This document shows positions 17,122 through 27,403 of a DNA stretch of 64,000 bases, in pieces. Each line of letters opens with the position of its first letter. The stretch's first letter is position 1. The DNA lies in NCBI GenBank assembly GCA_964527765.1, contig CAZGQR010000008.1:14264-78263 (forward strand). The letters run 5' to 3'. Below the pieces are notes generated by a model. The model had not been told where the DNA came from, searched no databases, and saw nothing but the letters and a program-made list of their open reading frames with translations. The DNA is from an uncultured Planctomycetia bacterium. Lineage in GTDB: Bacteria; Omnitrophota; Gorgyraeia; Tantalellales; Tantalellaceae. Position numbers and translations under genes: made by a program.

Positions 17122-17478
17122 TCATGAAAGTTCTTCGACAGCCCTGACAAGATTGTCCACACTGCCGCTTTTGACCAGGAACCGGTCCGCCGTCCGGGCA
17201 TAAACGCTGTTCTCGTATTCATGATAACCGGTATAGATAATGATCCGGGAATACGGAGAGATCTGTTTAAGAGTGGAAAAAATGGACAGTCCGTCCTTTC
17301 CGGGCATCATCAGGTCCAGGATGATAACGGCCGGGGTATTGTCCTCCAGATATGCAAGAAGTTCATAACCGTTGTAAACCGAATCTGCCTCATACCCTGA
17401 TCTTACCAGTATATCGACTACCAGTTCACACAGTGTCCTATTATCGTCGGCTATGACTATCTTTCCCCGCTGCTGCAT
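17122..17478 (-). CDS. Stand-alone response regulator receiver (CheY-like)
   Basis: It contains IADDN, ILDLMMPGKDG (the phospho-Asp) and T/K motifs. The ATG at 17478 has a GGGGTGG Shine-Dalgarno sequence. The track start at 17493 is a TTG. Confidence 0.75.
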   Translation of the reverse strand: MQQRGKIVIADDNRTLCELVVDILVRSGYEADSVYNGYELLAYLEDNTPAVIILDLMMPGKDGLSIFSTLKQISPYSRIIIYTGYHEYENSVYARTADRFLVKSGSVDNLVRAVEELS

Positions 17479-17511
17479 AGTCCCACCCCGCAAGCATGGC
17501 CTTAGCGTCCC

Positions 17512-17541
17512 ATTGTATCACCACTGTCGCCGGGTTGTCAA
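17512..17541 (-). promoter_or_regulatory. Predicted sigma70 promoter for the response regulator
   Basis: On the minus strand the -35 is TTGACA (perfect) and the spacer is 18 nt. An extended -10 TGaTACAAT follows, about 34 nt upstream of the ATG. Confidence 0.45.
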
Positions 17542-17587
17542 TCAAGCGATACCCCGGACAGCGTAAAAAATCCTGCTGATTTTATGT

Positions 17588-17670
17588 TCAAGAGCACAGT
17601 GCGTTCCCTATCAGGGCCCCTCCGCCCGGTGTGGATCCTCCCTGTACGGGAACACACTGTGCTCTTTGAT
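17588..17670. repeat. Long imperfect inverted repeat (19-bp arms, one mismatch) with a structured 45-nt loop
   Basis: The arms are aagagcacagtgcgttccc and gggaacacactgtgctctt. The loop has an inner caggg/ccctg stem and a ggatcc palindrome. The element sits between the VanZ-like stop and the response-regulator promoter. Confidence 0.6.
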
Positions 17671-17676
17671 CAAATT

Positions 17677-18225
17677 TCAAGGTTTTTGAGGTTCCTTTAA
17701 AATGTTAAATCTTATTACCATCAAAGCTATTACACTGCCCGCGGCATTCAGGACGGCATCCCTCCAGTCAAAGACCCTGTTCGGCAGTAACAGCTGAATG
17801 ATCTCATCCAGAAAACCCGCACTCAGGCAGAACAGGGAACCGAAAAGATAGAGTTTTTTATCGAACCTGTCGATGTCTATTTTCAGCGCGTTATAAACAA
17901 AAACCCCCAGAAGCGCGTATTCGATCAGATGTATCTTCTCCACGGGGAATCTCGACAGTCTGTTCAGCGCCAGGAATATCCAGACGAACAGAAAGAATAA
18001 AAGGTAACTGTTCGGGGACCTTTCTTTTTTCACAAAGATCATATAAGCAAAGAGGCAGACAGCCGCGATGAAAAAGACGATGTACACCGGGATAGTGCCT
18101 TTACCGCCTAAAGATGCGTTAAACCCGTCCCAGATCCGCGGAGCGACCCCGAGAGTGGAATAAACAACCATCAGGTATAACGCGGTTATCGCCCACCAGA
18201 CTTTTCTCAGGTATTTCTTTCTCAT
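17677..18225 (-). CDS. VanZ-like family membrane protein
   Basis: It has 4-5 TM segments and contains EKIHLIEYALLGVF and GFLDEIIQLLLPNRVFDWRDAVLNAAG, matching the VanZ-family conserved core. The start was chosen at MRKKYL to avoid a long overlap with the upstream gene. Confidence 0.65.
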   Translation of the reverse strand: MRKKYLRKVWWAITALYLMVVYSTLGVAPRIWDGFNASLGGKGTIPVYIVFFIAAVCLFAYMIFVKKERSPNSYLLFFLFVWIFLALNRLSRFPVEKIHLIEYALLGVFVYNALKIDIDRFDKKLYLFGSLFCLSAGFLDEIIQLLLPNRVFDWRDAVLNAAGSVIALMVIRFNILKEPQKP

Positions 18226-18248
18226 AAGACCCTTCTTTAAACCGCGGT

Positions 18249-19430
18249 TTACTCCGCAGGCGCGGCCACTGCGGACCTTCTGCGGGTACATACGGTTTTG
18301 AGCGTTTTACCGAAAATTATAAGAAAATGCCTTATCAAATAGGGGTACACCATAAAACTCAACAGGACAAATTTCACCGTATCCCATATGCTGTCGAACA
18401 TGACCAGTTCGGCAATGTAACCCGTGCTTGTGCCGGCATTTCTTATCTTACGGAAGAACCAGCGGTCGCTTTTTTTTGCCGACCGCCCCAGGTCCTCGAA
18501 CACCGCCCCGGGCACAGGCGTGCCGAACATATTCTTCGTGAAAAGAAGCGCGTAATAAAGCGGTTTTCTTATCCTGTACTTCCCGGCGGCGCCTGTCACC
18601 TCTTCCCAGCTTATCTCCCCCTCATGCTTCCGGATAAACTCATTGATATCGACATACCATCTGACACCCGAGAAGCTGTGCTGCATGGATACGTGCAGGC
18701 ACTGATAAAGAAGCGTGTGGACGATATCCAGCGTGCGTAACCTCACACCGCCCGCGCTGAGCACTCTCGCACGCTCCAGGATCCCGTTCACATCCATATT
18801 GAGGATCCTGTTGTGCAGCATGCGCCCGATAAAACTCCTGTGAACATCCAGGCATATCCCGTCGTCCCGGACATACAGTTTCTGGGCCCTGTAATCATCG
18901 GGGTCCCCCTTGCCGTCAGAGGGCGTAAATCCCTGCGCCTTCAATATCCCGTGGACCTTCCGCGCGTCTTCCGGCCGCACCAGCAGGTCGATATCAGCCA
19001 TCTCCCTGAGGCCGATATCGCCGTACACATCCATCAGATAGGAAACCCCTTTCGTGAAGATCACGTCCACCCTTTCCTTCCGGAAAAGATCCGACAGCGA
19101 TCCGGCGGCATCGAGGTTCCTGACATTGTAAGCAAAGATCTCGGCGGTCCATTCCCTCAAACGGGCATTCACCCTTTCGGGGATACCGCCGAAACCCTGC
19201 AGGGACCTGTAAGCGAGCGGGGACACCTGATATACATTGGCGAGTTCCAGGAAGCGGTCCCAGTCCACTTTTCCCGAGCGAAGTATCGACCCCGCTTCCG
19301 ACCGCTCCTTTTCGCCTAGAGACGTCCTGGAAAAGAGGATGACGAGCTTTTCCTCGACAGCCCTCGGTCCGGAAGGGCCGAGATCAATGGCCGGAAAAAT
19401 ATCTATCTGCTGCGTGATCATTCTGGGCAT
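18249..19430 (-). CDS. Uncharacterised nucleotidyltransferase family protein (NTP_transf_5 / PF14907-like)
   Basis: It contains ADIDLLV and a surrounding GS...D.D-type Pol-beta-like nucleotidyltransferase core. It is about 390 aa with an alpha-helical C-terminus. This architecture is typical of the family that recurs in RiPP neighbourhoods. Confidence 0.65.
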   Translation of the reverse strand: MPRMITQQIDIFPAIDLGPSGPRAVEEKLVILFSRTSLGEKERSEAGSILRSGKVDWDRFLELANVYQVSPLAYRSLQGFGGIPERVNARLREWTAEIFAYNVRNLDAAGSLSDLFRKERVDVIFTKGVSYLMDVYGDIGLREMADIDLLVRPEDARKVHGILKAQGFTPSDGKGDPDDYRAQKLYVRDDGICLDVHRSFIGRMLHNRILNMDVNGILERARVLSAGGVRLRTLDIVHTLLYQCLHVSMQHSFSGVRWYVDINEFIRKHEGEISWEEVTGAAGKYRIRKPLYYALLFTKNMFGTPVPGAVFEDLGRSAKKSDRWFFRKIRNAGTSTGYIAELVMFDSIWDTVKFVLLSFMVYPYLIRHFLIIFGKTLKTVCTRRRSAVAAPAE

Positions 19431-20138
19431 TTAAAAAAGGTCTATAAAGCTGCTGCCGGTCACGTGGATATCGGACCCGGGACCGTACCGCCTTTCCGCT
19501 GTTTCGATGATCCTCTCAAGAAACCTGCCGGCAAACTCAGCGTTCCTGTCCCTGTGCCTGACATGTATATCGACGATAACACCGTGTTCCTTTTCCATCC
19601 TAACCGCGGCATTCGCGCTCCTGGATCCTCCCACAAAAGCATAGACCTTAAATCCGCCCCTGCTCTTGTGGACGGTGAAAAACATGCCTCTATAAAAAAG
19701 CTTTCTGGTGTTCCTATAAAGCGCGCCTTTGGAAAAAACCAAAAGGACCGGATCGAGGAATCTCCTCTTAATAAGAAGAGGTGTCAGGTTATGGCGTGAA
19801 AGAACGGCGATGACCCTGCCTGCCCGGCGCCGGAGGAAGGAATCCAGGGCAAAGACCCTGTCGCCTCTTTTTACGGTTACCACTTTCCCTCTGACCCCTG
19901 AAAAAGGGACCATCTCGCCTGAACCGGCAAGGGTATTATCGCCCTTGGTAACCAAATATTCCTCTTTCTTATTGACACTGAGAACACGATGGATAGCGGT
20001 CGTCCCGTTCCCGGAGATACTGTAAGTTATTATATCGCCTGACCCGATCAAACAGGGGTCGAATTCCTGACATATACATTCGTCCAGGGTTTTGATAAAA
20101 GGATACATGCTCTGGCCGTGAACAATGATCTTGCTCAT
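19431..20138 (-). CDS. Signal peptidase I-like (S26/S24 Ser-Lys) domain fused to a C-terminal domain of unknown function, possibly GNAT-like
   Basis: The N-terminus contains IVHGQSMYPF (Ser nucleophile box) and YLVTKGDNTLAGSGE (Lys / box-E-like). The C-terminal ~110 aa have no clear motif. It lies immediately downstream of the candidate precursor gene. Confidence 0.6.
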   Translation of the reverse strand: MSKIIVHGQSMYPFIKTLDECICQEFDPCLIGSGDIITYSISGNGTTAIHRVLSVNKKEEYLVTKGDNTLAGSGEMVPFSGVRGKVVTVKRGDRVFALDSFLRRRAGRVIAVLSRHNLTPLLIKRRFLDPVLLVFSKGALYRNTRKLFYRGMFFTVHKSRGGFKVYAFVGGSRSANAAVRMEKEHGVIVDIHVRHRDRNAEFAGRFLERIIETAERRYGPGSDIHVTGSSFIDLF

Positions 20139-20154
20139 AAAAAAATCAAGGTTA

Positions 20155-20454
20155 TTAAATGACGCCTAACCCGCTCTTGCACGTGTTAAAAGCGGCGTTG
20201 CCGTCTTTACAGGAAATAGTAGCCATCATGCCGTCCTTGCAGTGTTTCGGGGTCGGAGAATACTGGGATCCGGTAGAGCACCCCAGCGTGGCCGTACCCC
20301 CGTCCCTACATTGCCCGCCGGCCACCGCGCCGAAATCACAGAGCTGGCCCGCGCTGTGCCCGCTTTTGCAGTTGAACGCCTGGGCCCCCTTGATCGTCGC
20401 GCTGCTCAGATCGTGTGCGAGGGGCGGTGTGTATTTCTTCTTTTTCCTTTTCAT
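20155..20454 (-). CDS. Candidate RiPP/cofactor precursor peptide: 99 aa, Gly-rich, 7 Cys, seven C-x-x-G repeats
   Basis: It has a strong GAGGTGA Shine-Dalgarno sequence 6 nt upstream of the ATG. The sequence is MKRKKKKYTPPLAHDLSSATIKGAQAFN-CKSG-...-CDFG-...-CRDG-...-CSTG-...-CKDG-...-CKDG-...-CKSG-LGVI. It has no hydrophobic signal peptide. It is flanked by PqqD, peptidase, rSAM/SPASM and ABC exporter genes. Confidence 0.6.
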   Translation of the reverse strand: MKRKKKKYTPPLAHDLSSATIKGAQAFNCKSGHSAGQLCDFGAVAGGQCRDGGTATLGCSTGSQYSPTPKHCKDGMMATISCKDGNAAFNTCKSGLGVI

Positions 20455-20465
20455 GCATCACCTCT

Positions 20466-20738
20466 TCAGGTTTTATATCCGATAAATCCGGTCTTTTTCA
20501 TGTCTTTGATAAAAGCACTATAGTCCCCGGCGGCTTTATCGAGAGTGACATCATAGGCCTCTGTCATCTTTTCGACAATGCCGGGGGCCGCATTACCGCC
20601 GTCGCACAGGTCCCAGACGAACATGCCTGTCTCATTTATGCACAGCATATGCCCGTCCGAGGGATTGAAAAGAAGCGCTTCTTTCTGTTCTTTCCGCGCT
20701 ACAATATCAGGATTTCTCACGGGATATTTCTTTTTCAT
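20466..20738 (-). CDS. PqqD-family peptide chaperone (stand-alone RiPP recognition element)
   Basis: It reads MKKKYPVRNPDIVARKEQKEALLFNPSDGHMLCINETGMFVWDLCDGGN...IVEKMTEAYDV...FIKDMKKTGFI. It has a PqqD-like length and motif order. The start was chosen at MKKKY; the track ORF starts at 20810. Confidence 0.7.
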   Translation of the reverse strand: MKKKYPVRNPDIVARKEQKEALLFNPSDGHMLCINETGMFVWDLCDGGNAAPGIVEKMTEAYDVTLDKAAGDYSAFIKDMKKTGFIGYKT

Positions 20739-22452
20739 GGCCGGTCCTCTCTTTTTCAAGTTCGAACACCTTATCAGTGAACCACTCCGCGGTATCTCTA
20801 TGGGTAACAAAAAGAACGGTCATCTCCGGGAAACACGTCCTTATGCCTCTTAGGATATCGTCCTCCATCCCGGGGTCCAGAAAGGAGGTCGCCTCGTCCA
20901 TTATGAGTATCTTTGGTCTTCTCACCAGCGCTCTTGCGATCGCGACACGCTGCTTCTGCCCTCCCGAGAGAGACGACCCCAGCTCCCCTATGTCTGTATT
21001 ATAGCCGATGGACATCTCATCGGCAAGTTCGTCAAGCTTTGCCAGGCGCATGATATCCCGGACAAAACCTTCGGGCTTCTTTTCCCCCAAAAGCACATTT
21101 CTGATAATAGTATCATTGAATATGTACGGTTCCTGATGAACACAGGAGATATGCCTGGAAAAAGAGCTCATATTCATATCACGTATATCTATTCCCCCGA
21201 TCGAGATCCCCCCGCTCCAGGGTTTAAAAAGCCTGAGCAACAGGCCCAGAAGCGTCGTTTTACCCGCGCCGGAAGGCCCGGTTATCAGAGTCCATTTTCC
21301 GGCCGGCGCCACCAGATCCAATCCCCGGAAAAGAGCTTTGTCCCTGCTGTAGCCGAATGTAATATCGCTGGCCTCTATGTCCCCGCTGAACAAGGATACA
21401 TCCGGTACCCGTAAAGCTGGCCGGATCCCCTGGGGCTGCGTGATATCCCTGATGAAAACGGCATTTCTCTCTATTGACCGCCTTTCTTCGCTCAGGTTCT
21501 GGGCTATAGCTCCCAGGTTGTAAAACTCCGACAATATCATGGCGGAATACATGCTTACCGCGCTGAAAGAGCCGAGACTCAGTTTTCCGGTTATGATAAA
21601 ATATCCCCCTAAAAGCCAAAAAACCGCGGTACTCGCCTTCGAGAGGATATCGAATGCGATCCGTTCGTTCTGCCTGAAGACAGAAGACTTTCGCTCCATC
21701 CGGACCTTCCGCCGGAAAAGCTTCATTATCCTGTCCACTGCCCAGTCTTCCTTGAAAAAGCTCTTCACCAGTTTGATGTTTATAAGAAGATCATTGAACA
21801 GCGCGCCGTACCTGCTCGAAAAAAAGATATAACCGCTCTTTAGCCGCTGACGGCCCCGTGCCGCCCAGACCGTATGGATCGCCACCAGCGGCAGCGATAA
21901 AAGCACGAGCAGGCTCAGCTGCCAGGAAAGCAGGAACGAGAGGATAAAAAATACGGGTATCTTGACAAAGGAAAAGAAAGCCGGCAGTTCATAGAACACC
22001 AGGTTTTCGATGACTCCGCAGTCGTAATTCGCGAAAAAAGCGTTCTCCGCGGAACTCAGCTTTTTTATTTTCAGGTAATCGAGCCCGAAAAGCCTCCTCG
22101 CAAGATCATAGTTAACTTCAATGGAAAACTCTGTCCTGGCGCCGAGCATCAACCTCTCCGCCGCTATCTGCAATGCCTTCATCAACAGGAACACCAGAAG
22201 CCCGAGCACGGTGAACTTCACAAAAGCGCTAAGATCCCCGGCCATTATACCCTTATCCAGCGTGATCTTGGTTATGTAGATGATCAGAAGCCCGAGCGGA
22301 AAACTCAAAAGCTTCAGGATAAAGGCACGGGTCAATGAATTTCGGAACTTTCTCAGGATACCGAAAGCATAGACCAGAATGGTCCTGATATCCCCGAGAA
22401 CGGAAGTACCTCTCCCCAGCAGCGGATCCAGACTAAGTTTCAGGTCAAACAT
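20707..22452 (-). CDS. ABC exporter, fused permease/ATPase (type I exporter; no N-terminal C39 peptidase domain)
   Basis: It has six N-terminal TM segments, then Walker A GPSGAGKTTL, the signature LSGGQKQR and Walker B ILIMDEATS. Confidence 0.85.
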   Translation of the reverse strand: MFDLKLSLDPLLGRGTSVLGDIRTILVYAFGILRKFRNSLTRAFILKLLSFPLGLLIIYITKITLDKGIMAGDLSAFVKFTVLGLLVFLLMKALQIAAERLMLGARTEFSIEVNYDLARRLFGLDYLKIKKLSSAENAFFANYDCGVIENLVFYELPAFFSFVKIPVFFILSFLLSWQLSLLVLLSLPLVAIHTVWAARGRQRLKSGYIFFSSRYGALFNDLLINIKLVKSFFKEDWAVDRIMKLFRRKVRMERKSSVFRQNERIAFDILSKASTAVFWLLGGYFIITGKLSLGSFSAVSMYSAMILSEFYNLGAIAQNLSEERRSIERNAVFIRDITQPQGIRPALRVPDVSLFSGDIEASDITFGYSRDKALFRGLDLVAPAGKWTLITGPSGAGKTTLLGLLLRLFKPWSGGISIGGIDIRDMNMSSFSRHISCVHQEPYIFNDTIIRNVLLGEKKPEGFVRDIMRLAKLDELADEMSIGYNTDIGELGSSLSGGQKQRVAIARALVRRPKILIMDEATSFLDPGMEDDILRGIRTCFPEMTVLFVTHRDTAEWFTDKVFELEKERTGHEKEISREKS

Positions 22453-23246
22453 GAAAAAACGCTTTCGTGTTTTTTAAAATCCAGCATTCGAAACCCGACA
22501 CGTTCAACGATGTCGTTCATTATATCAAAAACATTCCTCAAGTATTCTCCCCTGTCCACAGCTCCCACGTTTTCGCGGAAAAAAGAGGCCGATTCGGGCA
22601 GGGCCCTGCGCAGGGCCTCGATCCCGGAAACGGAGCTTACCCCGTTCTTATCGGACTTGTTGAGCAGAAAAACGCCGCCTATCTCCCATTCCTCGGGATG
22701 GCCCCACAGAGGTAGAAAACACGGAAAACGCGCCGCGAAAAACCTCTCGCCGGACCTTTTTACCACGCAGAAATCATCATGTATCACATGCAGGCCTTTT
22801 TTCCCGGCCAGGGAACATATCGTGCTTTTTCCGCCCCCGCTCGGAGCGATGAAAAGATGGGCTTTACCGTTCATCACCACGGAAGCCGAATGTATAAAAA
22901 CTATATCCAGGACGCTTTGAAGATCCATGACCGAAAGATTAAGAAGCCTGTCCACCAAAAAATCGACAGATAGTCCCCTTTCGAAAAAACAGAATATTCT
23001 CCTTCTTTCGGCGTCATAAAGCTGCGCGACCCTTTTCCCGTGAACCGTTTTAATGTCGGCTCTCAGGGAACTTTTTTGTATCCTGACCGATATATCCGTC
23101 CTCCCGCACCTGTACAGGAATATATCAAGATCCGCTTGTTCCGCCTCGGACGGACCGGCTGGCTTGAATATCACCGGCCTTTCCTGAAAATTAAGAAAAT
23201 TCAGCCGTATGTTCGTTCCCAGAGCTTTATAACAGATCTTTTCCAT
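22440..23246 (-). CDS. HPr kinase/phosphorylase C-terminal-domain-like P-loop kinase (HprK-related)
   Basis: It contains FIHSASVVMNGKAHLFIAPSGGGKSTICSLA (P-loop) and HDDFCVV. It is 268 aa and has no HprK N-terminal domain. This type tailors peptides in RiPP clusters. Confidence 0.65.
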   Translation of the reverse strand: MEKICYKALGTNIRLNFLNFQERPVIFKPAGPSEAEQADLDIFLYRCGRTDISVRIQKSSLRADIKTVHGKRVAQLYDAERRRIFCFFERGLSVDFLVDRLLNLSVMDLQSVLDIVFIHSASVVMNGKAHLFIAPSGGGKSTICSLAGKKGLHVIHDDFCVVKRSGERFFAARFPCFLPLWGHPEEWEIGGVFLLNKSDKNGVSSVSGIEALRRALPESASFFRENVGAVDRGEYLRNVFDIMNDIVERVGFRMLDFKKHESVFSCLT

Positions 23247-24369
23247 ATCCCGCTCTCAGGGCTTCAGGCACGAGCCTGGTCGAAGGGAAAAAACCGTTAT
23301 CATAGGCTTCCTGACAGAACCAGTATGGAGCGAAAAGGTTCCCGGTGTTATGGTAGACCTCGGCTCTGCAGCTCCCCAGACATCTGTTCCTGAAAACACA
23401 GATACCGCAAACGCCCTCCAGGTTGAACGGTATTTCCTTCTTTATCCTGTTAAGAAGGGCGTTCTCGCGCCATATATGCCCCAATTTGGAAGGGTCTTTC
23501 CTGACCGTTCCGAAAACCAGTTTTTCATCAATATGGCCTATTCCGCATATAGATACGCTCCCGTCGGGCAGGATGCCGAGTATGTTCTTGATATTGCACA
23601 CCCCGCAGATCCCCGTGCGCACTTCCTCGACGCTCTTAAAAGCCACCGGTATGTCCAGATACAACAATCCACGGTATGATCTCCTGATGCCTTCAAGCTT
23701 CTCGGCGAATTCCAGGAGCTCTCTGACGGAAGGCACTTCCCCTCTTTCATGCAGTTCGGCTCCCCTGCCCAGGGGTGATATCGTATTCAATTTGATATTG
23801 TTCACCCCCAGTTCCCACATCGACTCTATAAACCCGATAATATCGGCAAAATTCTCCCTGTACATGCTTATTATCACCTGCGGGAACACGCCTTCCGCGA
23901 CCAGCGCCCTGATCCCTGCCAATGCCCTTTTGAACGCCCCCTTCCTTCCTCTGAAATGGTCGTTCATTTCCTCCAGGTGGCTGTCAAGGCTTACGGATAT
24001 ATAAAACGCCTTGTATTTTTTTATGGCGGAGGCCATCTTGCCGTCAATGAGGGTACCGTTCGTTTCTATGCCCACTTTTATATCCTCATCATGGCAAAAC
24101 CGTAATAGTTCTCCGATATCTTTCCGCAGCAACGGTTCGCCTCCGGTAAACTTCACATCCTTAAGCCCCAGTTCTTTCGCCGCTTTAATAATGGCGACTA
24201 TCTCCCCTGTCGATAGCTCCTCGTCATCATCCAGGCTTTCTTTCAAGGGAGGGGATATCCAACAATGCCTGCACCTCAGGTTACAATACCTGGTGGGATT
24301 TATATATAAACTTGTGAGATCTTTCCCGGGTATCCCGCTATCCGTGTTCCTCTTGTCACATAACCCCAT
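23227..24369 (-). CDS. Radical SAM/SPASM-domain enzyme 1
   Basis: It has a CNLRCRHC (CxxxCxxC) site near the N-terminus. The C-terminus has Cys clusters CGVCNIKN...SICGIG and CGICVFRNRCLGSCRAEVY (SPASM). The start was chosen at MGLCDK (24369), directly after the upstream stop. The track ORF is extended 5-prime. Confidence 0.8.
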   Translation of the reverse strand: MGLCDKRNTDSGIPGKDLTSLYINPTRYCNLRCRHCWISPPLKESLDDDEELSTGEIVAIIKAAKELGLKDVKFTGGEPLLRKDIGELLRFCHDEDIKVGIETNGTLIDGKMASAIKKYKAFYISVSLDSHLEEMNDHFRGRKGAFKRALAGIRALVAEGVFPQVIISMYRENFADIIGFIESMWELGVNNIKLNTISPLGRGAELHERGEVPSVRELLEFAEKLEGIRRSYRGLLYLDIPVAFKSVEEVRTGICGVCNIKNILGILPDGSVSICGIGHIDEKLVFGTVRKDPSKLGHIWRENALLNRIKKEIPFNLEGVCGICVFRNRCLGSCRAEVYHNTGNLFAPYWFCQEAYDNGFFPSTRLVPEALRAGYGKDLL

Positions 24370-24374
24370 ATAGC

Positions 24375-25472
24375 TTACCTCTGTTTTGACAAAACAATAT
24401 CCTCTTGCACCCTGAAGCCGTACAGATCCGAGAAAACAAGACAGGTCGACATGTTGATACCTCTCAAGTTCTCTCCGGCCGAATAATAAGCCGCCGCCCG
24501 GCATCCTCCGTTGCAATACGTGAGATAATCGCACCTGCTGCATTCTTTCCCGTATTTGACGAGAGGCTCATCCGCAAGCGACCTTATCTCGTTAAGGACT
24601 CCGGAATTCTCCCAGATATCCCTGAGCGACTGCTTCCTTGTGTCGCCGCAGACCAGCGTCCAGAACGCCGAACACGGGACCACCTTTCCGTCGGAACGTA
24701 TGGCCAGCATGGTATGTCCCGCGGGACAGGTAGAAAACGTCCCCCTGGCCCCCTTATCGCGGCCTTTCGCATAAAAGTCGCAAAGCATGTTTGTTTTCTG
24801 GCCGAGCGTCCCGCCCAGGCTGAAACCGGGATATTTCTCTTTCAACCGGAACATGGTCTCCATTATCCGGCGGTGCATCCCGCCCTCAAAGGTCAGTTCA
24901 TTGGCATAAACGGAAGCTCTGCCGCATGTCACGGCATCGCCGAAATCCATGCCCGAAAGGCCGAGGTCCATGGCCAGACGGACCATGTTCTCGATATCGT
25001 CCAGATTGTGTCTGTTGACTATGGCCTTGATGGAAACCGGAAGCTTTTCTTTTATGAGAAGTCTGACGCCGTTCAACGCTTTCTCGAATGAACCTTCCCC
25101 CCGCTGCCAGTCGTGGGCGGAAGCGCTGGAACCGTCGATGCTCACCTGCGTCCCGGCCAGGAACCTCATGCCTCTCATCCACTCCACGGCTTCCTCTCCG
25201 ATAAGGGTACCGTTGGTAAGGATGGTGACCCTCATCGGATAATTGTTAAGTATGCCCAGAAGTTCACGGATCCTCGGATAAATGAACGGCTCTCCGCCGA
25301 AGAGGTTCAGGCTAAAAACCTTCTCTGCCTTAAGCTGGTCCAGCACCTTTATTAATTCATCAAAGGAAAGCTGGTCTTTAAGATGCCAGGTGTCGGAAGT
25401 ATTGCAGTGCTTGCACCTCAGATTGCACCTGCCGGTAATGGCCAGGTCCACTATGGTGGGAAAAGGTCTCAT
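24375..25472 (-). CDS. Radical SAM/SPASM-domain enzyme 2
   Basis: It contains ITGRCNLRCKHC at residues 13-23. The C-terminus has CPAGHT...VVPCSAF...CGDT...CSRCDYLTYCNGGCRAAAY (twitch/SPASM). It has no N-terminal RRE. Confidence 0.85.
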   Translation of the reverse strand: MRPFPTIVDLAITGRCNLRCKHCNTSDTWHLKDQLSFDELIKVLDQLKAEKVFSLNLFGGEPFIYPRIRELLGILNNYPMRVTILTNGTLIGEEAVEWMRGMRFLAGTQVSIDGSSASAHDWQRGEGSFEKALNGVRLLIKEKLPVSIKAIVNRHNLDDIENMVRLAMDLGLSGMDFGDAVTCGRASVYANELTFEGGMHRRIMETMFRLKEKYPGFSLGGTLGQKTNMLCDFYAKGRDKGARGTFSTCPAGHTMLAIRSDGKVVPCSAFWTLVCGDTRKQSLRDIWENSGVLNEIRSLADEPLVKYGKECSRCDYLTYCNGGCRAAAYYSAGENLRGINMSTCLVFSDLYGFRVQEDIVLSKQR

Positions 25473-25491
25473 TTCAGGTTTTTCAATGTGT

Positions 25492-26269
25492 TTAATATTT
25501 TTCTCCGAATACCGACGCGCAGTGCTTAAATATTATCAGGCCCTCGGAATTAAAAAGCCATATTATCCTGTAAAAATCCTCTTTGGACAACGCGGTTGCC
25601 AATTTCTTGTTCACATCCCGCCGGACGGCTTTCAGGTCTCTTGTGCCGTCAAAAAATTTTACAAGATCCATAAGGGCTTTATCATCAAGACCGGGATTCG
25701 CAAAATCACGGCGAGAGGTAACCAGGCCGCATTTGCTCGTAACGTCCTTTACGAAATGAAGTTCCCTTTTTTCCCTGGAATAAAAAAGCGTCTTCAACCT
25801 GGTAAGAGGATTTGAAACGAACTTCATATCCTCCTTAAGCATTTCCATGATATACTCGTCAAGGCCTTTTTTCCTTTCCTTTTCGGGCTTCCGGCCCCTG
25901 GGCAGGTAGGCAAAGGATATTTGCCAGCCGTCCCTGCAGTAAAATTTTCTGCACGCCCCCGGCCTGTCCGGATAGATCGAGCATCTGTTGTCCTTGCCCA
26001 GGTACACGCAGGACCTGTCAGGTCTCCTCTCAAGCCACCACTCCCTGTTAACGCAGCTGGAGTCCTTGTTTTCGCATTCCTTCCTGGTCAGCCTGCATAC
26101 CTCCCTGGCCTTGTATTTTCCGGACCGGAACTCCTTCTCGCTGAGATTTACGTCATACGTCCTGCAGCAGATCGCCTCGCACAGGTCGCGGACCTCATCG
26201 CAGTTCCCGTTGCCGAAGAAAAGCCTTTTGTTTTTCGCGTCCAGTTTTAATTTTTGAGATCTCTTCATG
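25492..26269 (-). CDS. YkgJ-family (UPF0153, CxxCxxCC-type) putative Fe-S/Zn-binding protein with a C-terminal PqqD-like tail
   Basis: It contains CDEVRDLCEAICC and CVYLGKDNRCSIYPDRPGACRKFYC, matching the YkgJ pattern. The C-terminal ~100 aa (LMDLVKFFDGTRDLKAVRRDV...YRIIWLFNSEGLI) resemble a PqqD/RRE fold. The start is MKRSQK, with a GGGGGC Shine-Dalgarno sequence. The track ORF is over-extended. Confidence 0.6.
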
Positions 26270-26308
26270 ACGCCCCCGGGTGCTTGTGTAAGATGTGTGA
26301 CTCTTTGC

Positions 26309-26336
26309 TGAAACGTTATTATAACAGATTTTCCCT
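26309..26336 (-). promoter_or_regulatory. Predicted strong sigma70 promoter heading the rSAM/precursor operon
   Basis: On the minus strand the -35 is TTGATG and the spacer is 16 nt. An extended -10 TGTTATAAT follows. It lies in the 72-nt gap between the aminotransferase stop and the YkgJ start. Confidence 0.5.
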
Positions 26337-26341
26337 TATCA

Positions 26342-27403
26342 TCAAAGGTATGCCTTGACCGCGTCGATGACCCTTTCCTGTTCTTGCGCGCTGAGGGAAG
26401 GGTAGATAGGTATGGACAAACAGCCGGAATAGGCCTCGTCCGTGCTCCGGAAACCGGACCTGAGCTCCAGGTACCGGTGCAGCGGTTTATACACGGGCCT
26501 TTTGCAGATAATGCCCTTTTCACCCATCCGTGAGATCGCCGCCGATATATCCTTTTTTGTCCTTACTACGTACCGGTAATAAACATGGTCGAATTCGCCC
26601 TTCGGCAACACCAGGTCCAGGTCCTTGAAAGCTTTATCATAACGCACGGCTATTTCTTTTCTCCGTCGGATAAATCCGGGGAGTTTTTCAAGCTGCGCCA
26701 CTCCCATGGCGGCCTGCACGTCCGTCATCTTGTAATTGAAGCGGACCCTGTAGTCCTCTTTCTCGTCATAATCGCGGAGGTCCCGCGCGAGGCGAAGGAT
26801 CTCCTCGTCATCGGAAAGAAGCGCCCCGCCTTCGCCGCAGGCCAGCATCTTATTGGCGTAAAAGGAAAGGATGCCGAAACGCCCGATACTTCCCGCCCGC
26901 CTGTCCCCGTACATCGCCCCGATAGACTGGGCGCAATCCTCAACAACGGGAACACCCGCCTCCTTGATCCTCCCGATGTCAGCGGGATTTCCGAACATGT
27001 GCGGCACGATAACGGCACCGGCGGCATCCGTTATATTATCTTTAACGCTCTCCGGGGAAATATTAAAACTTTCCGGTTCTATATCGCAGAGGCGGGGCCC
27101 GGCACCTGTCTGATATACGGCATTCAACGGCGCGCTGCACACATAGGACGGAAGCAGCACATCATCACCCGGACCCACTCCCAGGGCCGCAAGGCCCAGA
27201 TGCAGGGCTGATGTGCCTGAACTGGTCACGACCGCCGCCCTGACGCCCGCGAACCGGGCCAGGCGCTCCTCAAGCTCCCTTACCCTGTCCCCCTGGGTAA
27301 TATGTCCTGACTTTATTACTTCCGAAACTGCCTTTAACTCTTCATCTCCCAGAGTAGGCCTCGAATGCGGAATGATCTTTTCGGCCATATATGATCCTTT
27401 CAT
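26342..27403 (-). CDS. DegT/DnrJ/EryC1/StrS-family PLP-dependent sugar aminotransferase
   Basis: It contains a TSSGTSALHL...ED.AQS...G region and the catalytic-Lys region SFYANKML. Confidence 0.85.
   Translation of the reverse strand: MKGSYMAEKIIPHSRPTLGDEELKAVSEVIKSGHITQGDRVRELEERLARFAGVRAAVVTSSGTSALHLGLAALGVGPGDDVLLPSYVCSAPLNAVYQTGAGPRLCDIEPESFNISPESVKDNITDAAGAVIVPHMFGNPADIGRIKEAGVPVVEDCAQSIGAMYGDRRAGSIGRFGILSFYANKMLACGEGGALLSDDEEILRLARDLRDYDEKEDYRVRFNYKMTDVQAAMGVAQLEKLPGFIRRRKEIAVRYDKAFKDLDLVLPKGEFDHVYYRYVVRTKKDISAAISRMGEKGIICKRPVYKPLHRYLELRSGFRSTDEAYSGCLSIPIYPSLSAQEQERVIDAVKAYL

Follow-up and report, generated by a model that had tools for sequence, protein, structure and literature searches.

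A probable divergent and rearranged SynChlorMet-type cassette in the genome of an Omnitrophota bacterium

Does a compact group of genes in an uncultured Omnitrophota bacterium represent an undescribed peptide-modification system, or does it belong to one that has already been defined? The genes lie in a stretch of 64,000 nucleotides (nt) of contig CAZGQR010000008.1 (positions 14,264 to 78,263), which was analyzed at its full length and is called the window below. An initial annotation, made from the letters alone, had described a locus for a peptide that is synthesized by ribosomes and modified after translation (a RiPP), with two radical S-adenosylmethionine (rSAM) enzymes. It had stated that the locus matches no characterized RiPP family, and that the gene combination may be undescribed. 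In our analysis, the locus is most likely an orthologue, though a divergent one, of the SynChlorMet (SCM) cassette, whose components are ScmA (TIGR04252), ScmC (TIGR04249/PF27840), ScmD (TIGR04248), ScmE (TIGR04250), and ScmF (TIGR04251). It is thus a new variant within a computationally defined, chemically uncharacterized system and not an undescribed architecture. The SCM cassette is said to have been described originally by Haft and Basu in 2011. In the searchable literature, SCM appeared only as database models, and no experimental characterization of the cassette or its product was found. The earlier statement therefore holds in the sense that nothing has been characterized by experiment, but not in the sense that no named family matches.

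The cassette proper occupies positions 17677 to 26268 and, according to the list of open reading frames (ORFs) of the window, comprises 10 genes on the minus strand, where the other window genes and sites described below also lie. Their order is YkgJ-like, ScmE, ScmF, ScmC, ABC exporter, PqqD, precursor, S26-like peptidase, NTP_transf_5, and VanZ. Every ORF named in the initial annotation was present on this strand between 17122 and 26268. The tight packing was also confirmed, with spacing between cassette genes ranging from a 32-nt overlap to a 19-nt gap (-32 to +19 nt). The genes for the two rSAM/SPASM enzymes, PqqD, ScmC, and the precursor all fell within 5.3 kb and overlapped or nearly abutted one another, as expected of an SCM neighborhood; content of this kind recurs over the 86 loci considered below.

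The two rSAM/SPASM enzymes gave the clearest link to SCM. The ScmE-like enzyme (365 amino acids [aa], 24375 to 25472) matched PF04055 (E 5e-22) and PF13186 (E 5e-11). It carries a CxxxCxxC motif at residues 16 to 23 and a full 7-Cys SPASM motif, with no RiPP recognition element (RRE) at its N terminus. The ScmF-like enzyme (380 aa, 23227 to 24369) matched the same two Pfam families. The rSAM and SPASM cysteine motifs were intact in both enzymes, and neither has an RRE of its own. Among the 84 NCBIfam families that matched the ScmE-like enzyme, TIGR04250 was the best, at 220.9 bits against a cut-off of 400, followed by WgkB at 152 bits. For the ScmF-like enzyme, TIGR04251 was the best of 89 families, at 316.4 bits against a cut-off of 400, and AhbD came next at 138 bits. 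When solved structures were considered, the best relative of ScmE was SkfB (6efn, E 8e-21), followed by CteB, SuiB, PqqE, and anSME, and that of ScmF was the decarboxylase BlsE. The ScmF-like enzyme had 1887 homologues at an E value of <1e-20, and one protein (P0005) was 100% identical to it. Many homologues with 40 to 60% identity carry the JGI/NCBI label "SynChlorMet cassette radical SAM/SPASM protein ScmF." The NCBI labels for proteins of the type found at this locus are only "radical SAM protein" or "hypothetical protein," because the curated equivalog thresholds are not reached.

The gene following that of ScmF (22440 to 23246) encodes a 268-aa HprK-related P-loop protein, a putative Ser/Thr kinase. 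It gave no match in our Pfam scan, for which the copy of Pfam lacked PF27840; a precomputed PF27840 (ScmC) match (class E <= 1e-5) is recorded on a 100% identical protein. Among NCBIfam models, TIGR04352 (HprK_rel_A) ranked first (E 5e-6, 25.8 bits, far below its cut-off) and TIGR04249 (ScmC) ranked second (E 1.5e-4, 21.2 bits, with a cut-off of 125). A profile of the ScmC family built from 29 members matched the HprK/P structure 1jb1 (E 2.8e-7), and the His, GxGKS, and DD motifs fell into register in this alignment, which bears out the earlier assignment as an HprK-related P-loop kinase. The corresponding HprK-type residues, H119, G139-K140-x-T142, and D157-D158, were conserved at a level of at least 90% in 72 sequences. 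The stand-alone PqqD-type protein (90 aa, 20466 to 20738) matched PF05402 (E 4.6e-15). Of six PqqD-type families, TIGR04248 (ScmD) gave it the highest score, 44.9 bits against a cut-off of 100. PqqD gene calls in relatives likewise have 90 aa. Overall, the best NCBIfam match was an Scm model for three of the four core proteins (ScmE, ScmF, and ScmD) and the second-best match was one for ScmC.

The precursor peptide (99 aa, 20155 to 20454) was the component that the Scm models failed to recognize: TIGR04252 (ScmA, with a cut-off of 35 bits) did not match it at an E value of <=10. Its gene has a GAGGTGA ribosome-binding site ahead of the ATG, and its nucleotide differences from relatives fall preferentially at third codon positions. 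The peptide is composed of a leader with K-Y-T-P-P-L-A-H-D-L, a junction, A-Q-A-F-N, and then seven C-x-x-G-x-x-A/V/Y units that recur every 10 residues or so. Four close homologues with 54 to 88% identity were found, all on Omnitrophota-type metagenome contigs with an identical gene order, flanks included, and all seven Cys residues and the accompanying Gly residues were invariant among them. When the five sequences were combined into a profile and 1.84 billion representative proteins were searched with it, 47 further small proteins that share the leader and the repeat core were retrieved.

To place the peptide in the wider family, we assembled 86 loci. Eighty surround distant ScmF homologues (34 to 46% identity) from Desulfobacterota, Chloroflexota, Nitrospirota, Aminicenantes, Chlorobium, Bacteroidota, methanogens, and others, and six are close Omnitrophota loci. 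A hidden Markov model (HMM) of the precursor family, run against six-frame ORFs, found a match in 61 of these 86 loci, across many bacterial phyla and methanogens. Seventy-three matches lay <4 kb from ScmF and only 2 lay beyond, although the two zones contained approximately equal amounts of DNA. The small peptide gene is thus kept with the rSAM genes across very distant genomes; its loss from homologous loci is what the initial annotation had named as evidence that would count against it. Over 101 distinct peptides, the leader signature was K-Y-E-P-P-x-[LVI]-x-D-L, and the first Cys was found about 19 to 21 residues past the leader Tyr. Gly occupied position +3 of the repeat in 94% of cases, and Ala, Pro, or Val occupied position +6 in 80%. 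The spacing between Cys residues was 10 or 11, the last Cys was always trailed by 6 to 9 residues, and the repeat unit was always complete through +6, with Cys as the one invariant residue of the repeat. A comparison of the precursors of the window clade with the distant ones by hhalign gave a probability of 98.8% and an E value of 1e-16 over the leader and the first repeats. TIGR04252 matched some of the distant precursors, including ones beside canonical cassettes, at 15 to 30 bits, below its threshold of 35. The precursor class therefore already has a name, ScmA, but TIGR04252 is much narrower than the family.

Several precursors departed from the common form. A Bacteroidota SCM locus (L057, 8308 to 9508) contains five tandem precursor genes of 56 to 63 aa, each with a leader and two C-x-x-G units. 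In a deltaproteobacterial locus (L020, 11969 to 12631), a 220-aa precursor ORF has seven repeats followed by an approximately 110-aa tail in which Lys, Glu, Gly, Ser, and Pro abound; this tail is either real or the result of a missed stop codon or frameshift. A minimal variant composed of the precursor, ScmE, ScmF, and PqqD occurs in Syntrophaceae/Syntrophobacter (L024, L030, and L051), where the precursors have 54 to 56 aa and three Cys residues and end in ...G-S-[NK]-H-S-W. No ScmC, S26, or PF14907 gene was detected with the family profiles in these three loci, and ABC-2-type transporter genes lie next to the minimal cassette in L051.

Next, the accessory genes were examined by running iterated HMMs built from the window proteins over the 86 loci. 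PqqD was found in 75 loci, ScmC in 67, the S26-like protein in 59, and PF14907 in 42. The commonest order was PqqD, ScmE, ScmF, precursor, ScmC, S26, ABC, and NTP_transf_5. One locus with this order (L072) also clears the four NCBIfam cut-offs that could be scored, namely, those for ScmD (133 bits), ScmE (614), ScmF (604), and ScmC (290) and therefore represents a canonical cassette. Thirty-two of the distant loci were complete, ScmF being flanked by 6 kb or more in either direction. Among these, 30 had PqqD, 27 had ScmE, 25 had the precursor, 25 had ScmC, 19 had S26, 18 had the ABC exporter (within 6 kb of ScmF), and 17 had NTP_transf_5; all seven components were present in 8. The pairing of the S26-like peptidase, ABC exporter, NTP_transf_5, and ScmC, which had been taken as unusual, is therefore the norm of the family and the usual neighborhood of a canonical cassette. 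Similarly, the trio of HprK-like kinase, PqqD, and nucleotidyltransferase with two SPASM enzymes and a repeat peptide, which the initial annotation had suggested may be undescribed, has as its core the SCM cassette of TIGR04248 to TIGR04252 and PF27840. This cassette occurs in at least several hundred genomes of Desulfobacterota, Omnitrophota, Chloroflexota, Nitrospirota, Chlorobium, Bacteroidota, and methanogenic archaea. Six of the loci (L033, L037, L039, L066, L070, and L076) contain two SCM sets within 20 kb, with duplicate ScmE, ScmF, and PqqD genes and separate precursors.

The partners of the core were then examined individually. The S26-like gene (19431 to 20138) encodes a Sec11/archaeal-type S26 peptidase domain (residues 1 to approximately 90) joined to a C-terminal domain of about 140 aa. 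TIGR02228 matched it at 52.2 bits against a cut-off of 51.85. In a 32-sequence alignment (A4), G8-x-S10-M11-x-P13, H50-R51, and G66-D67 were invariant, and N68 was nearly so. The Pfam S26 model matched 27 of the 32 family members, and the family profile matched the eukaryotic signal peptidase subunit SEC11C (7p2q, E 2e-14). These matches fit the earlier reading as an S26 peptidase fusion. Only 7 residues precede the Ser box, however, so that the protein has no N-terminal transmembrane anchor, which is atypical for S26 signal peptidases. We therefore regard it as a putative cytoplasmic leader peptidase of the Sec11 type; to our knowledge, this signal peptidase family has no known use as a RiPP leader peptidase. 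For the C-terminal domain, an AlphaFold2 model of the fusion, built on a 4-sequence alignment, was poor (mean predicted local distance difference test [pLDDT] score, 50.7). Foldseek returned only weak GNAT-like matches to this part (best E 0.008, none at <=0.001), and Pfam found no GNAT match in the 32 family members. A GNAT fold was not adopted.

The enzyme of the PF14907 family (NTP_transf_5; 393 aa, 18249 to 19430, E 2.3e-50) has a nucleotidyltransferase fold, with G128, D146-x-D148, H197, and D261 conserved. In an Omnitrophota relative (L087, 14228 to 16093), a single 621-aa protein joins the S26-like peptidase to the PF14907 enzyme, which shows that the two are functionally coupled. The ABC exporter (581 aa, 20707 to 22452) has a transmembrane domain (PF00664) and a nucleotide-binding domain (PF00005), and Pfam detected no C39 peptidase domain in it. 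Just upstream of the cassette of another Omnitrophota locus (L007, 3895 to 7982) are genes for a TolC-like outer membrane factor, an HlyD-type adaptor, and a second ABC protein, which suggests a tripartite export route there. Pfam and NCBIfam HMMs agreed with the earlier assignments of the two rSAM/SPASM enzymes, the ABC exporter, PqqD, the PF14907 enzyme, and the VanZ-like protein. The RiPP-type toolkit that had been proposed is thus present: a precursor, an RRE, two rSAM/SPASM enzymes, an HprK-like kinase, a PF14907 enzyme, an S26-type peptidase, and an exporter.

From the gene content, motifs, and conservation, we infer every chemical step of the following scheme. ScmD, the stand-alone PqqD-type RRE, would bind the 99-aa precursor through its K-Y-x-P-P-x-hydrophobic-x-D-L leader and present the core to ScmE and ScmF, neither of which has its own RRE. 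ScmE and ScmF would then perform radical chemistry on the seven C-x-x-G-x-x-A decapeptide units. Most likely, each unit would gain one intrarepeat Cys thioether of the sactionine or ranthionine type, and the second enzyme would add a modification of another kind. A thioether is favored because Cys is invariant, the unit is complete through +6, and SkfB and CteB are the best solved relatives of ScmE. The HprK-like ScmC may phosphorylate Ser/Thr hydroxyls of the peptide, and the PF14907 enzyme may then decorate the phosphate with a sugar or a nucleotide-derived group, similar to what is seen in pseudomycoidin, a phosphoglycosylated lasso peptide. These two steps are proposed because of the lasso peptide precedent of paeninodin and pseudomycoidin (PMC8498205). 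The anchorless cytoplasmic Sec11-type Ser/His S26 peptidase would cut off the leader, possibly after the conserved A-Q-A, and the ABC exporter would secrete the product. We consider it likely that the locus is a divergent, rearranged SCM cassette member of Omnitrophota that works along these lines. For the product itself, we offer a much more tentative picture: it could be a chemically undescribed class of RiPP with about seven rings, one per decapeptide, that is phosphorylated, then phosphoglycosylated or nucleotidylated, and released from its leader by soluble Sec11-type cleavage, with an amino sugar from the DegT, PIG-L, and WbqC proteins as a conceivable donor.

Several observations speak against the assignment or the scheme. 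All five Scm equivalog models were missed (221/400, 316/400, 21/125, and 45/100 bits for ScmE, ScmF, ScmC, and ScmD, and no match for ScmA), and under the rules of NCBI the proteins would therefore not receive Scm names. Of the 32 complete loci, a sizeable share lacks NTP_transf_5, and the same holds for the S26 peptidase. Ser/Thr at repeat positions +2, +4, and +5 is frequent (about 36% each) but not universal among the 101 peptides, and the precursors lack a conserved C-terminal Ser, the target of lasso-associated kinases. An A-x-A junction fits the window clade (A-Q-A-F-N-C), and only an enrichment of small residues is seen family-wide, so that a signal peptidase-like A-x-A rule for cleavage between the leader and the core is held with low confidence. 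In the literature that we found, no chemical step has been demonstrated. Finally, ScmE and ScmF resemble the heme/d1 decarboxylases AhbD and NirJ, as well as WgkB, MftC, and BlsE, about as strongly as they resemble thioether synthases. The reaction type is therefore the weakest link of the proposed mechanism.

This last point leads to the possibility that the same cassette carries out a chemistry other than thioether formation, with the C-x-x-G-x-x-A units undergoing, for example, C-C or C-O cross-linking, epimerization, oxidative decarboxylation, or a change of Cys into a different residue. In that case, ScmC would not be a tailoring kinase but an ATP-dependent activating enzyme, for instance one whose phosphorylation step precedes an elimination. 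After the Scm models, the next-best NCBIfam matches of both enzymes were WgkB (a Trp-Lys cross-link maturase), the decarboxylases AhbD and NirJ, and MftC, at 110 to 150 bits, and these scores were comparable to those of StsB, PapB, and AlbA. The best solved relative of ScmF is a decarboxylase, and we know of no precedent among thioether acceptor motifs for the near-invariant Gly at +3 with Ala or Pro at +6. However, Cys is the sole invariant residue of each repeat, and ScmE has a sactisynthase, SkfB, as its closest solved relative. Most Cys-rich repeat cores paired with rSAM/SPASM enzymes have so far proved to be thioether peptides. PapB, for example, acts on repeated Cys/Asp motifs (PMC9413430). 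A nonthioether chemistry is thus a serious possibility, albeit a minority one, next to the thioether scheme.

Two further alternatives concern the fate of the product. In Omnitrophota, the peptide might be glycosylated or envelope associated and made together with the adjacent polysaccharide pathway instead of being secreted as a free peptide; an amino-sugar nucleotide would come from the DegT, PIG-L, WbqC, epimerase, and glycosyltransferase genes, and the PF14907 enzyme would attach it to the phosphopeptide. The cassette is located at the 3' end of a codirectional run of about 35 kb, and the junction is kept in Omnitrophota relatives whose ScmF is 52 to 59% identical. Mere inherited synteny may explain this adjacency. 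Sugar genes also accompany the cassette elsewhere: PIG-L, GT4, and WbqC follow NTP_transf_5 in the Omnitrophota locus L007; WbqC, PIG-L, and DegT occur in a Desulfobacteraceae locus (L012); and in a Leptolinea locus of Chloroflexota (L077, 1236 to 8107), NusG-like, VanZ, Bac_transf (an initiating sugar transferase), dehydratase, sugar-1-phosphate nucleotidyltransferase, and DegT genes lie on the same strand directly before NTP_transf_5. Such genes were found at only 3 of the 80 distant loci, however, and sugar clusters are common in general. The pseudomycoidin nucleotidyltransferase adds hexoses to a phosphate (PMC8498205), and the neighboring genes hint that the PF14907 enzyme might use a locally made sugar nucleotide. 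No terminator-like site was found between DegT and the cassette, but a promoter-like site separates the sugar block from it. On balance, we consider a polysaccharide-linked product unlikely. Far less probable still is an intracellular redox cofactor or modified carrier protein like PQQ or mycofactocin. The combination of PqqD with a PqqE-like rSAM/SPASM enzyme is a hallmark of those two pathways, and the MftC and PqqE models matched both enzymes at 98 to 120 bits, scores that fall far short of the respective cut-offs (265 and 381). No further gene of either pathway is present, conservation extends to a dedicated ABC exporter as well as to a leader peptidase, and the precursors are long, repetitive, highly variable, and often multicopy (five in tandem in L057), which fits diversifying secreted peptides better.

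The remaining members of the gene group differ in their relation to the cassette. The first gene (25492 to 26268) encodes a 258-aa YkgJ/CxxCxxCC-like Cys-cluster protein. Its N-terminal half is CxxCxxCC-like, and eleven Cys residues are invariant over six homologues. A YkgJ-type match was found as claimed earlier, but it is weak (PF03692, E 7e-4, 20.7 bits), below the gathering score of 23. In the C-terminal half (window positions 25492 to 25960), residues approximately 152 to 247 align in register with a whole PqqD/RRE domain, including strands, an F-D-G-x-R-x-L element, and the helices that follow, although the hhalign match is weak (11%, E 0.0027). Many canonical cassettes carry two PqqD genes, and the C-terminal half could be a second RRE in fused form. 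A single-sequence AlphaFold2 model of this protein was unusable (pLDDT, 35). At the other end of the cassette, the VanZ-like membrane protein (17677 to 18291; PF04892, E 2.3e-9) has an alternative internal ATG start near 18225. According to the iterated HMMs, the YkgJ-like gene was present only in the six close Omnitrophota loci, and VanZ was present only in those six and in L077, the only distant locus that also has VanZ; gene calls in L087 to L089 show VanZ as well. The YkgJ-like and VanZ genes are thus clade-specific additions, with one Chloroflexota locus as the exception for VanZ. A role of VanZ as an immunity factor is pure conjecture.

A hairpin of 75 nt (17591 to 17665) lies directly 3' of the VanZ stop codon. 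It has a perfect stem with 18-bp arms (minimum free energy, -53.9 kcal/mol; z score, -6.8), followed by a small stem and a U run, and its arms occur once in the window. The inverted repeat noted earlier is therefore real, but it is probably not part of the system. It is not conserved in the closest relatives (L001, L005, and L006), and Rfam gave no match to it or to anything else in the window. A conserved regulatory RNA was rejected for the former reason. The hairpin is probably a transcript end or stabilizer and may be a strain-specific terminator or an inserted element. The response regulator gene (17122 to 17478 or 17493, from the ORF list) likewise exists but probably lies outside the system. 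It was rejected as a component since it has a better promoter-like site of its own (11/12 positions) and response regulator matches near distant ScmF genes are rare and weak.

As for transcription, shared orientation was rejected as evidence for an operon because all large ORFs taken as coding in the window sit on one strand; the few ORFs on the plus strand overlap them. The near-consensus promoter proposed earlier corresponds to a sigma-70-like site (26318 to 26345), TTGATG-16-TATAAT, that agrees at 10 of 12 positions and has a TG before the -10 element (extended -10). This site and the stop codon of DegT, the gene upstream, overlap, and the first cassette gene begins 50 nt further on. The site is present, but sites of this kind are only modestly enriched (16 in this stretch versus 9.6 +/- 3.3 in shuffles). 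The scan found no terminator-like site between DegT and the cassette, and read-through from upstream is therefore possible. Upstream of the cassette, in the approximately 35 kb from 27400 to 62500, all large ORFs lie on the minus strand, and synteny with relatives places WbqC, PIG-L, DegT, epimerase, and GT4 glycosyltransferase genes in this block. The segment at about 36 to 48 kb has a G+C content of 0.40 to 0.45 compared with 0.50 to 0.54, like a variable O-antigen or capsule island. In this Omnitrophota clade, the cassette always follows glycosyltransferase, epimerase, WbqC, PIG-L, and DegT genes and precedes the response regulator and tgt genes, and this order holds even when the identity of ScmF is only 52 to 59%.

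The analysis contributes three points. A precursor family far wider than TIGR04252 covers, with the K-Y-E-P-P leader and C-x-x-G-x-x-A decapeptide repeats, is tied to SCM. The partners that recur in SCM loci are a Sec11-type peptidase that is soluble, a kinase of the HprK-like type, an ABC exporter, and a PF14907 enzyme. Furthermore, Omnitrophota offer a compact 10-gene version of the cassette that can be synthesized and expressed. Solving its product would give a chemistry to two large orphan rSAM/SPASM families and would show the role of the HprK/PF14907 pair outside lasso peptides.

When compared with known systems, the locus is, judged from model scores and gene content, not a lasso, HPr-rel-A, GeoRSP, mycofactocin, or PQQ system, in agreement with what the initial annotation had said of lasso, mycofactocin, and PQQ clusters. 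For mycofactocin and PQQ, the two rSAM enzymes scored 120 and 113 bits with MftC (TIGR03962; cut-off, 265) and 98 and 109 bits with PqqE (TIGR02109; cut-off, 381). HPr-rel-A (TIGR04352/TIGR04353) and GeoRSP (TIGR04302/TIGR04303) are, like SCM, computationally defined and uncharacterized, and they combine an HprK-related kinase and/or PqqD with rSAM/SPASM enzymes or a nucleotidyltransferase. TIGR04352 gave 25.8 bits against a cut-off of 200, and the window PqqD had no TIGR04353 match; the GeoRSP models gave 116 and 119 bits for the rSAM enzymes (TIGR04303; cut-off, 400) and 39.8 bits for PqqD (TIGR04302; cut-off, 100). Their scores were lower than the Scm scores except for the ScmC protein, for which HprK_rel_A was the best match. 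The paeninodin and pseudomycoidin lasso clusters share with the window an HPr kinase homologue, a PF14907-type nucleotidyltransferase, a PqqD-type RRE, and an ABC exporter, and in both settings the nucleotidyltransferase can be fused to a leader protease, which is B2 in lasso clusters (PMC8498205) and S26-like in L087. In contrast to the lasso systems, the core in the window is worked on by two rSAM/SPASM enzymes and the precursors have no conserved C-terminal Ser. Neither a lasso cyclase (Asn synthetase-like) nor a B2 transglutaminase-type protease was found among the locus ORFs by Pfam or NCBIfam, and only the window PqqD matched lasso PqqD models, at 26 bits against cut-offs of 70 to 80.

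Sactipeptides and ranthipeptides (SkfB, CteB/SCIFF, PapB/freyrasin, and AlbA) have in common with the locus an rSAM/SPASM maturase and a Cys-rich precursor, and the repeated short Cys motif of the window resembles the repeated Cys/Asp motifs of the PapB substrate. The locus differs from them in its C-x-x-G-x-x-A motif with a 10-residue period, its two different rSAM enzymes, its separate RRE, and its kinase, nucleotidyltransferase, and S26 partners, and its thioether linkage is a prediction; the NCBIfam models of their maturases all scored far below cut-off for the window enzymes. The closest likeness is to the SCM cassette itself. In both, the core combines a pair of PqqE-like rSAM/SPASM enzymes with a stand-alone PqqD, an HprK-like ScmC, and a precursor that has Cys/Gly repeats, with an S26-type peptidase, an ABC exporter, and NTP_transf_5 as usual neighbors. 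The differences lie in the arrangement, which is Y-E-F-C-T-D-a-P-N-Z in the window and D-E-F-a-C-P-T-N in the canonical cassette (Y, YkgJ-like; E, ScmE; F, ScmF; C, ScmC; T, ABC exporter; D, PqqD; a, precursor; P, S26 peptidase; N, NTP_transf_5; Z, VanZ), in the added YkgJ-like and VanZ-like genes, and in the position of the cassette at the end of an Omnitrophota polysaccharide gene cluster.

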